DNA of 64,000 nucleotides from an uncultured Chthonomonadaceae bacterium (GTDB lineage Bacteria; Armatimonadota; Chthonomonadetes; Chthonomonadales; Chthonomonadaceae), in the NCBI GenBank assembly GCA_963817895.1, contig CAWFQB010000001.1, positions 64,001-128,000 of the forward strand, in the 5' to 3' direction. Under the pieces are notes generated by a model, which was given only the letters and a program-made list of their open reading frames with translations, ran no database searches and was not told the origin of the DNA. Shown one piece after another: positions 16,026 through 27,002 of the stretch. Position numbers and translations under genes: made by a program. The stretch's first letter is position 1. The number at the start of each line of letters is the position of its first letter.

Positions 16026-16913
16026 TTACCAGTTCAGCGTAGGCGGGAAGAACTCGGCGATGAGGTCTTCGTAGTAGGGGCGGAGTTGCGCCACATTGGG
16101 CGGCTGATGGCTTTTGGAGTACAGGTCGTAGGGATTGAAGGCGCGTACCCAGGCGAACAATTCGCGGTCATGGTCGTTCATCAGATGTTGGTACGCGCCT
16201 TCCGTATGCGCCGGGTAGAACGAGTGGTAGCGGATCATGGCAAGGCCGGATTCGGGCAGGTACTCTTTGACGACGTTGTACAGATACTCGTCATGTCCCC
16301 ATGAAAGGTGTACGTTGTCCAGTCCGCAGCCCGGTTCATAAATGCCGTTTTCGGTCTGATACTCGGCAATCTGCATATCGGGATTATCGCGGAAGAATTC
16401 GGGGTACACGATTTTATCGGAGTACCTGCAGCCGACGGGGAAGGTATCGCCCACAACCGCCCATTGCGGCTCGTCCCACAGGCACAGAATTTTGCCCAGG
16501 TCGTGGATCAGGCCGGTCAGGATAAACCAGCGCGGGTGTCCATCGGCGCGAATGTCTTCCGCCGTTTGCAGCAGGTGCTGAATTTGAGAGAGGTCGGTAT
16601 CCGGGTCGCTGTCATCAACAAGCGTGTTCAGATACTCCATCGCTTCCCAAATCCCCATTTTGCGCTGCGCGAGGGGCAGGTACTGCCGTTTCTTTGCCAG
16701 CACAAAATCAAGCGTCTGGTAGCGATGGTTCAGGCGATAAAATTCCCGCACGGACGAACGCGCTTCCGCCTCATAGTTGCGAAACTCTTCCTGCGCTTTA
16801 TCCGCATCCGTGAAAGCGTTGGAAGCATAGCGTTCCCGGCGGGCTTCATCCAATTCGTCCATATCCGTCAAAGGCGCGGCGTTGTCAGGTACGGCAATAG
16901 CGGTTTGATTCAT
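16026..16913 (-). CDS. Myo-inositol oxygenase
   Basis: [75 protein letters not shown]; likely start MNQT at 16913, not the longer ORF. Confidence 0.93.
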
Positions 16914-16964
16914 GGCTGTCCTGATTCCTTCAAATGGGAGGTTCTGCAAAAGGGGTACTGCTAT

Positions 16965-17448
16965 CTGTCCACGACATAGCGTTTGTAGTGCTATTCCGGC
17001 TCTGAACAGCGTCAGCAGGGTGAGAAGGCACAACATTCCCGCCATCAGCAATTCTACAAAACGCGCATTGGGCATCTGCGGGGTGAGACGGGACAGACCG
17101 CCGCCTAAGAGAAATAGCGCGGACGCCGAAAAACTACGAGCGCGGCAATGACATGACCGCTTAACACAACAATCCACAAGATCTTTCACATCGTTCTCCC
17201 TGACGGCCGCCCTCCACAGCATCCTAACAAATCCGCGCTTTGCCTGCCGAATCGTCAAAAGGTCCCGGCCATCCGCCGTTCCGCATATCGTCTATGTCGC
17301 GCTTGCTCTTTTTCCATCTTTCGTAACTGTTGATCCATCCGTGCATTGATCTGGCGACAGCGTTCGTCAGCCTCAGCTTGAAGGCATTTTATATTTTCGC
17401 CTGCTCTTCCTCTGTGAGTATTTCGCGTTTGCGTCGCCGGAAGAACAT
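16965..17448 (-). pseudogene. Frameshifted hypothetical protein (basic coiled N-terminus plus TM segments)
   Basis: GGAG-N7-ATG giving MFFRRRKREILTEEEQ; continues in other frames to hydrophobic [16 protein letters not shown]. Confidence 0.4.
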
Positions 17449-17483: not shown

Positions 17484-17936
17484 TTAAAGTGTGGGACTTT
17501 CGTTTGGGTCAATTACCAAAGCAGCGACATCAGGGAATATAGCGCGAAAATGCTTTGCATTCAGGGTAATGAGATGGTCTACGCTTGCGAGCAATGCAGC
17601 CTTCGCAATCAAAGCGTCATAAGTTTGTCCGCCGCCGATGTGATGCGCGGCAAGCTGCTCCAACACTGTCGGGTAATCAGCGGCAGATAAGGCAACTACT
17701 TCGACATGAGGCAAAACCTCTGTTTGCAATACTTTCCAAGCTGTTGCAGGAGAGATGGGAGGCTTTACAGGCATACGAGTCAGCACGGCATAAACTTCAG
17801 CGACGGTATGGGCAGCAATGTAACCAGTGACTTCTTTGCGTTGAACACGCTGTAACCAGGCAACAGCAAGAGCATGGGCGACGTGGCTTTGAACGAGAGC
17901 CGCCACTAAAATGGATGTGTCAAGCAGCACCTTCAT
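17484..17936 (-). CDS. PIN-domain VapC-like toxin
   Basis: VLLDTSILV, AEV, TYDALI, TLNAKHF. Confidence 0.9.
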   Translation of the reverse strand: MKVLLDTSILVAALVQSHVAHALAVAWLQRVQRKEVTGYIAAHTVAEVYAVLTRMPVKPPISPATAWKVLQTEVLPHVEVVALSAADYPTVLEQLAAHHIGGGQTYDALIAKAALLASVDHLITLNAKHFRAIFPDVAALVIDPNESPTL

Positions 17937-19255: not shown

Positions 19256-20164
19256 ATGACCTGGATCATTCTCGGAACCGTCGCAACCATTATTTCTACT
19301 ATTGCCTACATCATCACCGCGCTTTATATTCGGGCGGAGTTGAAGGGGCTGGAAAAAGACCGTTATCTGACGGTTACGAATCAGCTCTTCACAACGTGGC
19401 AGAGTACGGAATTTATGCAGGCGCAATTGTGGCTGCTGCATAAATTACAGGAGAGCGATTGGGACGCTTTTGTTGCCGCGCACCGCGCCGACATGGGCGA
19501 ACTGGCGTTTCACCGTGTCGGCTCTTTTTATGACCGGGTGGGTACGCTGATTAAAATGGATCTGGTGAACGAGCAGGAGATTCTCGCCACGATGGGCGGG
19601 TACGCGATTGCCGTATGGCAGAAGATCGGGCCGCTTGTGCAGGAAGCGCGGCAGATTGAGAACTCCGTGCTGTTCCAGAACTACGAGGCGATGCTGCCCG
19701 CCTGTCACGAGTGTTACGTTCCCGCGCTGAAAATTAGTTCCGGGGGCAGTATGGGCCGGAGTATGCCGGTCAACATGTTCATGGAGAAAACGCCGGTTCG
19801 CATCAGCCTGTCGGAACTGCGGCGCAAACAGGAACGCGGGGAACCGCTGACACTGCTGGACGTTCGGCAGGCAAAACAGCAGGTCACGCCCGAAAACCGG
19901 ATACTGCCCAACGCCATTCTCATTCCCCCGGACGAGATCGAAACGCGCTACGGAGAATTGCCCCGCGACAAAGAGGTCGTCGTGTATTGCGCTTGATCGG
20001 ACGAGGCTACGAGCGCCCGTGTGGCGCTCTTCTTACAATCCAACGGCTATACCGCCCGCGCCCTGACCGGCGGCTACGACGCCTGGAAAAACGCGGGGCT
20101 GCCGCTTGTCTCGTTTCCCGCTGCGCAACCGGCTGCGCCGTTGCAGATCACGCCGCGCCTGTAA
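19256..20164 (+). CDS. TM + DUF4760-like + rhodanese fusion with in-frame UGA (19994-19996), predicted selenoprotein of about 302 aa
   Basis: The frame continues past TGA: VVVYCA-U-SDEATSARVALFLQSNGYTARALTGGYDAWKNAGLPL to TAA 20162-20164, completing the rhodanese fold. Confidence 0.82.
19997..20035 (+). promoter_or_regulatory. Candidate bacterial SECIS element
   Basis: 7-bp stem GAGCGCC(20011-17)/GGCGCTC(20023-29) with a GU-containing loop CGTGT, starting 15 nt after the UGA. Confidence 0.65.
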
Positions 20165-20184: not shown

Positions 20185-21010
20185 TTACTCTTTTGCGCCC
20201 GCCGCGCGCAGCAGCGGAATACACTCGGCGACATTCCTCATGTGCTGCCATTGCAGGGCATAATGCAGTGGCGATAAAGTGTCCATGCGCAAGTTGGGAT
20301 CGGCATGGCGCGAAAGCAGCAGCCGTACAATTTCCGCATGTCCACGCTGCACAGATTTAAATAACGGAGTCTGGCCGCCTTTATCCCGCGCGTTCACATC
20401 AGCCCCCTTATCCAGAAGCATTTGTACCATTGCCTCACTGCCAAACGCGGCGGCAAGCATCAAGGGCGTTTCCATGCTCCTGAGGCGTCGCGCATTCACG
20501 TTGGCGTGATGAGCAAGTACAAGCCTGAGCGCTTCCACAGAAGAAGGGTCGCTCTCCTCTCCCATCACGACCCCAAAAAGGATGGTATCCCCCTGTGGTC
20601 CTGTAGCGTTCACGTCTGCGCCGTGTTCCAGAAGCGCCTTTAAAATCGTGATATTGGGAGGGCTGAACGTGACATTAAGCGAAGTATAACGGGTGTACGC
20701 TCCGGGCATCAGTGCCAGATCAAGAGCGGAGTAGGAAGCGAGATAAGAGGGTTGTCGGCGCAGTTGCGCGAGGAGCGTTTGCCAGGGTGAACCAGGGGTA
20801 AGAGTATCATCGACATAAAGGCGCCCATCCGGGTCCGCGCTCTGATCCAGAAGTTGAAGCGCCAGCGGCGTGTCGTTATCATCTATGGCATACAATAGCG
20901 CATCCGTTGTCTGATGCCGACGTTGCGCATGGTAAACCATCCCCACTATCCCGCCTCCAAGAAGAACACTCAGCAGGAGGAATCTGAAAGAGACGAGAAG
21001 TTGATTTCAA
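20185..21010 (-). CDS. Ankyrin-repeat protein with N-terminal TM/signal (5' end probably frameshifted)
   Basis: LLEHGADVN, ETPLMLAA, LLDKGADVNARDKGGQTPL, SPLHYA. Confidence 0.88.
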
Positions 21011-23310: not shown

Positions 23311-24321
23311 ATGGCCGATATTACCATGGAACGACCTGCGGAGGATGACCTCCAGCGCGATGAGTTGGTTGAGTCTTACCGCCTGATGCTTCTCATACGC
23401 CGCCTGGAAGAGTCCGTTTACCGCAAATTCCATGAAGCGAAAATCGGCGGCTATCTGCACCGCTACGATGGCATGGAAGCCCTCGTCGTCGGCGTTATCC
23501 CCCAATTGCAACTGCCCGGCGATTACGTGCTCTGCACCTACCGCGACCACGCCCACGCCCTCGCCTGCGGCACGTCCGCCCGGGCGGTCATGGCCGAACT
23601 GATGGGACGCGCGACCGGCTGCGCGATCGGCAAGGGCGGCTCCATGCACCTGACCGATCCCGAACGAGGCTTTCTGGGCGGCGACGGCATCGTGGGCGGC
23701 CCGGTTCCCGTTTCGCTCGGCGTCGGCTTTGCCCTGAAATACCGCAATACCAAAAACATCTGCGTGTGCTACTTCGGCGACGGCGCGATGAACCAGGGCG
23801 GCGTTCACGAATCGCTCAACATGGTCGGCTTGTACAAACTGCCCGTTCTCTACATTCTGGAAAACAACCAGTACGCGATGGGCACCTCCGTCGAGCGCTC
23901 CACCGGCCAGCCCGATTTTGTGCTGAAAGCCAAAGCGCACGGCATTGCCGGCGAACAAGTGGACGGCATGGACGTTCTTACCGTGCGCGACGCGGCCAAA
24001 CGCGCCCTCGAGCGCATCCGCGAAACGGGCGAGGCCTATTTCCTGGAAATGGACTGCGAGCGCTTTGTCGGACACGGCATCGGCGACGACAACACCAAAG
24101 GCTGGCAGACCTACCGCACCCAGGAGGAGATCGCGCGGCATCAAGGAACTGGACCCGCTCCGGAGACTGCAAGACATGCTCCTCGAAGACGGCTACCTGA
24201 CCCAACAAGACGTGGACAAGTACGAGCAGGAAGTTCACGAAGTGTCGAGGACGCCGTCGCCTTCGCCGAATCCAGCCCCGAACCGCCGCTCGACAGTTTG
24301 TATGAGAATGTATTTTCGTAG
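23311..24321 (+). CDS. pdhA: Pyruvate dehydrogenase E1 alpha (compensating frameshifts near the 3' end)
   Basis: IGGYLH, TYRDH, GKGGSMH, FGDGAMNQG...ENNQYAMGT TPP motif. Confidence 0.93.
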   Translation: MADITMERPAEDDLQRDELVESYRLMLLIRRLEESVYRKFHEAKIGGYLHRYDGMEALVVGVIPQLQLPGDYVLCTYRDHAHALACGTSARAVMAELMGRATGCAIGKGGSMHLTDPERGFLGGDGIVGGPVPVSLGVGFALKYRNTKNICVCYFGDGAMNQGGVHESLNMVGLYKLPVLYILENNQYAMGTSVERSTGQPDFVLKAKAHGIAGEQVDGMDVLTVRDAAKRALERIRETGEAYFLEMDCERFVGHGIGDDNTKGWQTYRTQEEIARHQGTGPAPETARHAPRRRLPDPTRRGQVRAGSSRSVEDAVAFAESSPEPPLDSLYENVFS

Positions 24322-24431
24322 GTAGATAAGTAGATGGGTAGATAAGTAGGATCATCCTATTACACATCTAATCCGCAATAATGAGGAAGGCTTTCATCTC
24401 GCCTACCTGTCTACTTATCTACTTATCTACC
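24318..24431. repeat. Inverted GTAGATAA array element between pdhA and pdhB
   Basis: GGTAGATAAGTAGAT ... TCTACTTATCTACTTATCTACC. Confidence 0.8.
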
Positions 24432-24445
24432 TTCTGGAGACTTGA

Positions 24446-25424
24446 ATGTCTGAAATGCGTTATCAGGAGGCGCTTCGACTCGCGATGACCGAGGAGATGG
24501 AGCGCGATGAAGATGTGTTTATTTGTGGGGAAGAGGTCGGGCAGTATCAGGGTACGTACCGCGTGACCGAGGGGATGCTGCAAAAATTCGGGCCGAAGCG
24601 CGTGGTGGATACGCCCATCAGCGAGATCGGCATTGCCGGCCTGGCAACGGGCGCGGCGATGGTCGGGATGCGCCCGGTCGCCGAGTTCATGACGTGGTCG
24701 TTCGCCCTGGAAGCGATGGATCAGCTGGTCAACCACGCCGCCAAAATCACGTACATGTCGGGCGGGCGCATCCAATGCCCCGTCGTGTTTCGCGGCCCGG
24801 CGGGCGTCGGCACGCAGTTGTCCGCGCAGCACTCGCAGAGCCTGGAATCGTGGTACGCGCACACGCCCGGCTTCAAAGTGGTGATGCCCGCCACGCCGGA
24901 AGACGCCAAGGGACTGCTGAAAACCGCCATCCGCGACAACAACCCGATCATCTTCATGGAACACGCGGGACTGTACGGCTTGAAGGGCGAAGTGCCGGAA
25001 GACCCGGAATTTCTGGTTCCGTTCGGCCAGGCCGCTGTGCGGCGCGAAGGCAAGGACATTTCGCTTGTCTCCTATTCGCGCGGCGTCCATCTGTGCCTGA
25101 AAGCGGCGGAAGCGCTGGCGAAAGACAAGATTGACTGCGAAGTGATTGACCTGCGCACCCTCGTTCCGCTCGATATGGATACGGTTGTCACATCCGTTCG
25201 CAAAACCCACCACGCGGTAGTGGCGCAGGAAGAGTGGAAAAACGTCGGCTTCATGGCGGAACTCGCGGCGCGCATCTACGAGCAGGCGTTCGACGAACTG
25301 GACGCGCCCGGTCGAGCGCGTAGGCGGCGCGGACGTGCCCATGCCCTACGCCAAAAACCTGGAACGCGCCGCCATCCCCACCTCCGACGACGTCGTCGCC
25401 GCCGTCAAACGCGCATTGGCATAA
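24446..25424 (+). CDS. pdhB: Pyruvate dehydrogenase E1 beta (frameshift near 25310)
   Basis: [42 protein letters not shown]. Confidence 0.94.
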
Positions 25425-25428
25425 GGAG

Positions 25429-25541
25429 GGTGTTCGGTGTTCGGTGCTCGGTATTCGGTGAAATTGTATCTTCTACCTCATTATTGCAGGTATGGTGAAT
25501 ACAGGGATTTACCGAACACCGAACACCTGAACACCGAATAC
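25429..25541. repeat. Inverted GGTGTTC array element between pdhB and pdhC (related arrays near 2640, 37112, 43590)
   Basis: (GGTGTTC)n ... (GAACACC)n. Confidence 0.8.
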
Positions 25542-25558
25542 CCACAGAGGTACTCTGC

Positions 25559-26901
25559 ATGGCTGAAATTACGATGCCCAAAATGGGCGATGGAATGGAA
25601 GAAGGCACGATCAACAGTTGGCTGAAAAAGGAGGGCGATCAGGTCAAGGCGGGGGACGCCATTGCCGAAGTCGAAACCGACAAAGCCAACGTGGAGATCG
25701 CCGCTTATGAGACGGGTATGCTGTCCAAAATCATCGTGCAGGTCGGGCAGACGGTTCCCGTCGGCGCGGTAATCGCCGTTATCGGCAGCGCGACGGCGGC
25801 AAGCCAGACGCCCGCGAAAGCCAACGGCGGCAAGCCTGAACCGTCGGTCACTCCTGCTGGCGCCAACAAAGGCGGGGTGAAGAGGGCAGCAATACGCCCC
25901 TGATTCCTACCGGCAACGGCTCCGGCAGTAATGGGCATGGACAGCCTTTACGCCACGCTGACAGCCTCGCCCACCACCGAGCGCGTGAAAGCCTCCCCGC
26001 TGGTTCGCGCAATGGCGAAAGAGATGGGCCTGGAACTGGCGGCGATTTCCGGCACCGGGCCGGGCGGGCGCATCGTGCAGCGCGACGTAATGGCGTACCT
26101 GGAAACCCGCGACGAGCAGACTCTGCTGCGTCCTGCTGCCGCTCCGCCAACGCGCAAGTGGGAACCGCGTCCGTTGCGCCGGTTGCTTCCGCTACCTCAG
26201 ATGCGGACACCACGCAGGAGATCGCCACGTCCAACATGCGCAAGGCGATTGCCAAGCGCACCGTGCAAAGCAAGCAGAACACGCCCCATTTCTACGTCAC
26301 GATGCTGATCGAGATGGATCGCGCGCTGGCCCTGCTCAAAGAACTGAATGCGGACGCGGCGAAGGACGAAAAGTCACGGTCAACGACATCATCGTGAAAG
26401 CCTGCGCCCGCTCGCTCGCCAAAGTGCCGGAAGTGAACGCGACATGGACGCCGGAAAACACCATTCGCCGCTACGCGGAAGCGCATATCGGCATGGCGGT
26501 CGGCATCGACGACGGCCTGATTATCCCGGTCGTGCGCGACTGCCACAAGAAAACCCTGCGCCAAATCTCCGTCGAAGCCAAGCAGTTGATTACCAAAGCC
26601 CGGAACAATCAACTGAAGCCGGAAGAGTATCAGGGCGGCACGTTCAGCGTGTCCAATCTGGGCATGATGGGCGTGGACGAGTTCATCGCCATCATCAACC
26701 CGCCGGAAGCGGCGATTCTCGCCATCGGCGGCATTGCCCGCGAACCCGTTGTGGTCGGCGATGCGCGACGAAATCGTGATTCGCTCCCGCATGAAAGTGA
26801 CGATCAGCGCCGATCACCGCCTGCTCGACGGCGTAGTAGCCGCCCGCTTCCTGCAGGAAGTGAAAAAAGCGCTCGAAGCGCCCTTCTCGCTCCTTTCCTA
26901 A
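25559..26901 (+). CDS. pdhC: Dihydrolipoamide acetyltransferase E2 (frameshifted)
   Basis: Lipoyl ETDKA, E3-binding GTGPGGRI, GGTFSVSNLG, SADHRLLDG. Confidence 0.94.
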
Positions 26902-26926
26902 AATCTGTAACGTTTGTGTTTGCGCG

Positions 26927-26967
26927 AACGCCCGTTCTGATTCATCACAACGGGCGTTTTACCTTTT
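26927..26967 (+). terminator. Intrinsic terminator of the pdh operon
   Basis: AACGCCCGTT/AACGGGCGTT stem followed by a T-rich tail. Confidence 0.7.
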
Positions 26968-27002
26968 CTCTTAAGAAGCGCCTATTCTGAGCAGGTAACA
27001 CG

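Follow-up and report, generated by a model that had tools for sequence, protein, structure and literature searches.

Selenocysteine (Sec) in a rhodanese fold has been catalogued before. The CxU rhodanese appears as 'form 3', with the motif CxU, in the available part of PMC13188914, and as form 2 of COG0607, named rhodanese-related sulfurtransferase, in that of PMC9312934; a UxU variant had already been reported in the accessible text of PMC1976440. The same part of PMC13188914 includes the NF045694-type system, a membrane-associated rhodanese selenoprotein fusion with a UxxxxU motif, two Sec residues and a DsbD-like partner. The term DUF4760 (PF15956) was met in a single paper, which deals with another topic, and no description of a function was found for the domain. 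DUF4760 is absent from the main texts of PMC13188914, PMC12013277 and PMC13326102 and from the portion of the supplements of the last two that was examined, while the available section of PMC1794560 contained nothing relevant. A DUF4760 selenoprotein was not found in the literature searched.

The window, a 64,000-nucleotide stretch of the genome of an uncultured Chthonomonadaceae bacterium, was found to carry a gene in which these two domains are joined. The best NCBIfam match of its product is NF041203 (rhodanese_LYCAU; 72.3 bits across residues 175–284, below the cut-off of 115), with which it has in common the rhodanese fold, a predicted Sec two residues past the catalytic-position Cys (YCAU) and the existence of Cys-containing homologs. 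NF041203 is a stand-alone equivalog model of 126 positions, whereas the window protein is a 302-aa fusion that adds a linker and a 175-residue region composed of a transmembrane (TM) helix, a DUF4760 domain and a CxxC. As both score and length disagree, the protein is not counted among the equivalog's members; NF041203 was also the best NCBIfam match of five full-length Cys homologs, which scored 71–87 bits, and all six fusion proteins tested were below 115. NF045694, which differs in its motif, its two Sec residues and its partner, was not among the NCBIfam matches of the window protein or of five homologs. BSepDB, whose supplement in its accessible part lists Armatimonadota genomes, may hold these genes under form 3 by their rhodanese part. 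The preliminary description had called the architecture unrecognised, which stands for the fusion, not found in print, and not for the CxU rhodanese, catalogued as NF041203 and form 3. What is new is the fusion of a CxU rhodanese to a TM, DUF4760 and CxxC module; the Sec domain is known.

The gene and its predicted read-through product

The gene stands alone between two minus-strand neighbours, a divergent metallophosphoesterase and a convergent ankyrin protein. It starts at ATG 19256, and under table 11 its frame ends at TGA 19994–19996, right after EVVVYCA; past the TGA, 55 further codons follow in frame up to TAA 20162–20164. The preliminary description was exact in placing the TGA inside the rhodanese loop with an open frame beyond it, and the 55 codons complete the rhodanese fold. 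A promoter and terminator scan gave nothing above chance. The features, in window coordinates, are as follows.

19256..20164, plus strand: full gene, 302 aa with UGA read as Sec (ORF list, translation, Pfam)
19262..19330, plus strand: single predicted N-terminal membrane helix, residues about 3–25 (hydropathy, K/R bias)
19382..19693, plus strand: DUF4760 all-helical domain, residues 43–146 (PF15956, 35.3 bits, cut-off 25; helical with high confidence in AlphaFold2)
19697..19723, plus strand: near-invariant P-x-C-x-x-C-Y-V-P motif with C150 and C153, where the last helix ends
19718..19783, plus strand: flexible linker, residues 155–176 (pLDDT <50; length varies in alignment A1)
19793..20116, plus strand: CxU-type rhodanese-fold domain, residues about 180–287 (NF041203, structure match, DxR)
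19988..19990, plus strand: Cys245 at the catalytic-Cys position of rhodaneses, kept in 120/121 sequences
19994..19996, plus strand: in-frame TGA, predicted Sec247
20011..20029, plus strand: putative bacterial SECIS, 7-bp stem (5-bp conserved core), 5-nt loop CGUGU

The N-terminal segment is hydrophobic over residues about 1–27, with a 19-residue hydropathy of up to 2.1, and in 121 sequences the mean number of K/R is 0.08 before the segment against 3.8 in the 12 residues after it. Positively charged residues flanking a membrane helix tend to stay inside (the positive-inside rule), and the charge bias suggests an N-out/C-in topology with the rest of the protein in the cytoplasm. The DUF4760 domain lies behind an N-terminal hydrophobic helix, as in distant members of PF15956; those are proteins of 160–200 aa that, unlike the window protein, lack both the CxxC and fused domains. 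The CHEC sequence corresponds to C150–C153; C150 is present in 121/121 sequences, C153 in 120/121 and Y154 in 121/121. CxxCH is the heme-binding motif of c-type cytochromes, and this possibility failed, the residue past C153 being Tyr in all 121. Besides the Sec/Cys site, only three Cys columns are conserved in this set, C150, C153 and C245.

On the read-through protein, the Pfam Rhodanese model matched residues 185–280 (48.6 bits, cut-off 22.2), and the DxR motif was present in 121/121 sequences. AlphaFold2, run on a 43-row alignment, gave a model with a mean pLDDT of 86.7, in which the N-terminal part is helical, the linker disordered and the rhodanese domain complete; the pTM was 0.55, with no fixed orientation between the domains. 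The rhodanese domain superimposed on 3gk5 with a VIA-align Z of 17.1 and an rmsd of 1.5 over 100 residues, and the residues past the UGA were required for the match to solved rhodaneses. Among the nearest structures are the persulfide-handling enzymes 5ve3–5ve5 and 3nt6, and in an alignment the Cys245 equivalent of the homolog P0009 falls on the Cys in the loop of the 5ve3 rhodanese domain. Rhodaneses filled the matches of whole-model structure searches. The N-terminal module modelled from its single sequence reached a pLDDT of 46.7, and no solved structure was matched by its profile below E 0.48. PADLOC and PHROGs gave matches in 0/25 and 3/25 cases, the latter to one unnamed family.

Predicted selenocysteine at the TGA codon

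The protein search returned 280 matches, and the analyses rest on the best 120 of these, the named ones being mostly 'hypothetical protein'. Among the 120 matches listed, 104 end at x-C-[A/T/S/D/G/N], i.e. at the Sec codon, 13 continue with CxC and one with CxW; the remaining two, unclassed by pattern, are one CxC and one frameshifted protein. At the DNA level 49 loci were collected, of which 45 cover the codon (37 TGA, 6 TGY, 2 TGG) and 4 do not. After removal of loci more than 85% alike, 33 non-redundant loci were left, the window's own included, and the tabulation of TGA against TGY that the preliminary description had proposed gave 27 TGA, 5 TGY and 1 TGG, with no TAA or TAG. In the TGA loci the frame runs on for 38–59 codons through the conserved ATSARVA...GG..AW, except in two that end earlier at contig ends.

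The gene is patchy, occurring in 9 of the 401 genomes sampled from the phylum and at full length in 8 of 61 close relatives; by source name the carriers belong to Chthonomonadaceae, Chthonomonadales, Fimbriimonadaceae and Isosphaeraceae. In a quick tree, where 51 of 119 inner branches stayed open, Cys rows fell at about ten separate places, which suggests that Sec and Cys were switched repeatedly in the family. A Trp codon (TGG) at the site was met in the loci L044 and L105 (genome G057) and in the protein P0050, together with a remnant hairpin and CxxS in the module; G057 has selA, selB and tRNA-Sec. Three further loci hold rhodaneses of other build: a stand-alone rhodanese of a Nitrospirae MAG (L024:4848-5330) has two in-frame TGAs, at both loop positions (U-x-U), and lipoprotein-like CxU rhodaneses (YCS-TGA-PNE) are present in Blastocatellia/Pyrinomonadaceae MAGs (L022:4755-5310 and L023:4800-5310).

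A search of the genome for the Sec machinery, likewise proposed beforehand, found all four genes. SelA scored 517.7 bits, selD 364.2 bits with an in-frame TGA of its own, and tRNA-Sec 63.9 bits (cut-off 47) with the anticodon TCA, while selB is in three frameshifted pieces, the best of which reached 222.5 bits, below the cut-off of 242.25. Since the SelB C-terminal domain of a same-genus genome lies within a 641-codon open frame, the split is probably an assembly error, like other broken genes in the window. A scan by coding score disclosed four more in-frame TGAs, each at the first Cys of a WxxC-type motif; all four read-throughs match ResA/TlpA-type models, and a G-loop hairpin lies about 17 nt downstream of each TGA. 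These UxxC proteins are, on sequence grounds, further predicted selenoproteins of the genome. The genomic positions (genome G000, by contig) are:

C14:204962-206852, minus strand: selB, split over three reading frames
C6:13945 (minus), C11:128878 (plus), C3:2465 (minus), C5:542719 (minus): in-frame TGAs of the four ResA/TlpA-like UxxC proteins

Genome-wide reassignment of TGA was rejected, as only 135 TGAs have coding-like flanks on both sides by hexamer score. The presence of selA in 11/11 gene-bearing genomes is weak evidence for Sec, because the background is high (218/401 in the phylum, 27/32 in the family) and four genomes with Cys or Trp also have selA.

The hairpin had been placed 15 nt past the UGA, and this location was borne out: GAGCGCC (20011–20017), CGTGT (20018–20022) and GGCGCTC (20023–20029) begin at the 15th base past the UGA, with G at +23 and U at +24, so that the loop has G in its second place followed by U. 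The bacterial SECIS model in the available part of PMC13188914 allows a loop of 3–9 nt with G in its first two positions, a stem of 4–16 bp, a distance of 16–37 nt from the UGA and an energy of at most -7.5 kcal/mol; the hairpin agrees with that text, having by our own script a 5-nt loop, 7 bp, a spacing of 21 nt and -12.1 kcal/mol. Its stability is unremarkable: in four windows the folding energy was not unusual against shuffles (z = -0.95 to +0.57), and energy was discarded as evidence on this account. Among 5000 random genomic TGAs judged by our own hairpin rule, 248 (5%) passed -7.5 kcal/mol and 41 (0.8%) reached -12.0.

Its conservation is another matter. When 80 conserved positions, each with at least four synonymous codons, were compared, the most constrained were the stem codons 253, 254, 256 and 257, where a single synonymous codon is used in 26/27, 25/25, 22/22 and 24/24 Sec loci, respectively; the median constraint was 0.57 and the next best position after these four 0.85. 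Arg255 is encoded by CGT or CGG only, which keeps the loop G. The best hairpin was in the same register in 24/26 Sec loci against 1/5 non-Sec loci, the five core pairs hold in 25–26 of 26 Sec loci, and the loop-closing pair holds in 1/6 non-Sec loci; three of the 26 Sec loci miss the energy limit, and the Cys homolog L097 retains the full hairpin. The stem covariation that the preliminary description proposed to examine did not appear, one of the five pairs having one compensatory change in 26 loci, so that the stem is frozen and not co-varying. A function as SECIS is supported by the synonymous constraint, i.e. by conservation and not by energy.

The opposite reading, in which the TGA marks a true stop or arose by nonsense mutation or faulty assembly and the product is a truncated protein of 246 aa, draws on an assembly with many frameshifts, selB included, and some stray in-frame TGAs. 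Two such TGAs, C3:742917 (plus) and C3:92662 (minus), lie at non-Cys positions in long frames with coding-like flanks, which we take to be ClpB-like and chromate-transporter-like, and are probably errors or nonsense changes. With them the earlier argument that an in-frame stop is a different type of error from the indels of this assembly loses its weight, and the case for Sec is carried by the homologs. Against a stop or an error, the same codon is TGA in 27/33 divergent loci and never TAA or TAG, Cys is the main alternative, the downstream frame is conserved and the synonymous sites are frozen; this reading is very improbable. In a look-up of raw reads, three runs held 5–6% of the words, and the contigs were from relatives only.

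TGA 19994 therefore almost certainly is read as Sec, predicted to be inserted via SelB and the hairpin 15–33 nt downstream, because TGA stands in 27/33 loci with the rhodanese C-terminus conserved past it, because the genome has the Sec machinery and five other in-frame TGAs at redox-Cys positions, and because 104 of the 120 homologs among the matches listed end at this codon and 14 have Cys. The earlier proposal of Sec is in this way backed by the machinery, by TGA/Cys interchange among homologs and by the constraint seen at synonymous sites of the stem.

The DUF4760-CxxC module and its sister family

A profile search recovered the same DUF4760-CxxC module joined to another tail. With P0132 as the query, 215 matches were obtained, the best 120 of which are all DUF4760 joined to AhpC/TSA, and both CxxC motifs, that of the module and that of the thioredoxin fold, are present in 120/120 of the matches listed.

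P0132, P0280–P0398; P0134, P0424, P0425, P0427: sister family, TM, DUF4760, CxxC and AhpC/TSA

Two named members are from Candidatus Binataceae and annotated 'peroxiredoxin family protein'. The sister module is 48% identical to that of the window protein over 165 aa, and the two families have in common the module, its CxxC, the topology signal and a redox domain on a variable linker; in the sister, a thioredoxin-fold CxxC (probably UxxC in some) replaces the rhodanese, and an extra Cys is conserved at position 76. Four 90% clusters, P0134 (7 members), P0424, P0425 and P0427 (4), stop exactly ahead of the first thioredoxin Cys, the pattern expected of UxxC, and judged from these protein ends they are probably unannotated UxxC selenoproteins; none of 151 genomes in an unrelated phylum gave DNA for the UxxC codon of the sister family.

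The nine most distant DUF4760 proteins (alignment A2) are short and have neither the CxxC nor a fused redox domain, and the one CxxS protein among 121 is P0050, whose Sec site is occupied by Trp. Counter-examples to such coupling are P0130, whose rhodanese domain stops at the Sec position and whose module has CxxA, and P0135, P0136 and P0138, with CxxC and no visible fused redox domain. The sister family is the best functional lead for the DUF4760-CxxC module.

Possible chemistry and gene neighbourhood

The active-site loop, Y-C245-A-U247, is a CxU motif. GlpE/PspE sulfurtransferases and Cdc25-type phosphatases or arsenate reductases have the fold, the DxR motif and a Cys heading the loop in common with the window family, and the accessible part of PMC10135228 gives Cx4R/T and Cx5R as signatures of rhodanese-fold loops. 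Judged by those signatures, the family loop C-A-U-[P/S]-D-E-A-T-S has neither the Cx4R/T of GlpE/PspE nor the Cx5R of Cdc25, with Glu at +5 and Ala at +6; it is acidic and longer, by two residues with respect to 5ve3 when aligned via the Cys homolog P0009. Arg at +6 never occurs in the listed counts for full-length homologs.

The proposed protein would cross the membrane once, and its DUF4760 domain, its CxxC and the rhodanese domain on the linker would most likely lie on the cytoplasmic side. Cys245-x-Sec247 would act as a thiol/selenol redox pair and not as a classical anion-binding sulfurtransferase site; a selenenylsulfide between the two would be formed and broken, and the pair would exchange with C150-x-x-C153 of the module to which it is tethered, either in cis or between molecules. 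The module would then serve as a redox switch or relay at the membrane, with the rhodanese domain as an oxidoreductase built into it. This mechanism is suggested by the longer, acidic loop that matches neither Cx4R/T nor Cx5R, by the fusion of the same module to a thioredoxin-fold CxxC domain in the 120 sister matches listed, by the lack of both CxxC and fused redox domain in the nine most distant DUF4760 proteins, and by the coincidence of Trp for Sec with CxxS in P0050, a correlation resting on one sequence. The UxU form of the rhodanese (L024, and the accessible text of PMC1976440) points to both positions being reactive. Against the relay are P0130, P0135, P0136 and P0138, the AlphaFold2 model with its free domain orientation, and the want of a conserved neighbourhood naming a pathway in 44 loci. 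Taken whole, Sec insertion together with a membrane-tethered thiol/selenol relay has, in our estimate from sequence, a little under an even chance.

The same loop bears on a different view, in which Sec is real and the domain is a carrier of sulfane sulfur (or selenium): a donor protein or polysulfide would load a persulfide onto Cys245, Sec247 would hasten the release, and the acceptor would be either the CxxC module or a different protein. The rhodanese fold with Cys at the catalytic position, the persulfide-handling enzymes among the nearest structures (5ve3–5ve5, 3nt6) and the family name rhodanese-related sulfurtransferase in the available part of PMC9312934 speak for a carrier; a loop without the Cx4R/T signature, as the accessible text defines it, a sister family with a thioredoxin fold in place of the rhodanese and the absence of recurring sulfur-metabolism genes beside the gene in the family loci make it unlikely.

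No conserved neighbourhood was detected, the ORFs of at least 100 aa from 44 loci being clustered to the gene itself, shadow frames and small clusters; the latter come mostly from near-identical contigs, and no neighbour recurs beyond close kin. The functional link to a TauE sulfite exporter, offered earlier as speculation, is unsupported: the TauE gene is on the opposite strand, and among 49 family loci, many of 1–4 kb, the only match is in L021, a 10.9-kb locus of a same-genus genome. Around the gene, window 16026–17258 (minus) encodes a myo-inositol oxygenase (MIOX, 376.8 bits) that adjoins the divergent metallophosphoesterase region and is partly syntenic in a same-genus genome. A PIN-domain protein with a short upstream ORF region at 17484–17936 (minus) is possibly a VapBC-type toxin-antitoxin pair, the pairing being putative. 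The ankyrin-repeat protein at 20185–20946 (minus), which converges on the selenoprotein gene, is absent at the same place in L021, and ORFs at 23311–26990 (plus), broken by frameshifts in the ORF list, are presumably pyruvate dehydrogenase E1-alpha, E1-beta and E2-like.

The neighbourhoods also bear on the idea that CxxC and CxU jointly coordinate a soft metal or metalloid (Zn, Cu, Hg, As) in order to sense or detoxify it. Both motifs are common metal ligands and one chain has two conserved dithiol-type pairs, and yet metal-resistance genes do not recur in the 44 loci and the AhpC/TSA swap fits redox chemistry better; this is improbable, the least probable of the functional alternatives. Distinctly unlikely, too, is the view that the CxU rhodanese is a movable tail, placed by bacteria on many membrane proteins to sense or regulate (through redox state, persulfide or metal), and that it modulates DUF4760 with no chemical exchange with the CxxC, which would be structural. 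Stand-alone and lipoprotein forms (L022–L024) and the tail of P0130, which lacks the full CxxC, are in its favour, and it is opposed by the CxxC, which is invariant across the two redox-fused families and missing from those distant DUF4760 proteins, all unfused, that were examined.

Going beyond the redox relay, we put forward only tentatively, as rather unlikely, that DUF4760-CxxC represents a class of redox switch, anchored in the membrane and so far unrecognised, which independently recruited two selenium-using catalytic domains, the CxU rhodanese in Armatimonadota and other groups and the UxxC/CxxC thioredoxin fold in Candidatus Binataceae.

The locus brings no new recoding and no new Sec motif. 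Its reading puts right a truncation that is systematic in the databases, where 104 of the 120 homologs among the matches listed stop at the Sec codon, and adds a membrane fusion to the CxU rhodanese selenoproteins. The exchange of the rhodanese for a thioredoxin-fold partner is a first functional lead for DUF4760, and the main interest left lies in the DUF4760-CxxC module with its two interchangeable redox partners. For the CxU selenoprotein family, which reviews list as predicted only, the CxxC is a candidate substrate in cis. If the tentative redox-switch reading is true, the CxU rhodanese would be a thiol-disulfide oxidoreductase, a chemistry not found described for the rhodanese fold, and the self-contained two-domain protein would allow the function of the orphan form-3 selenoprotein to be tested directly.
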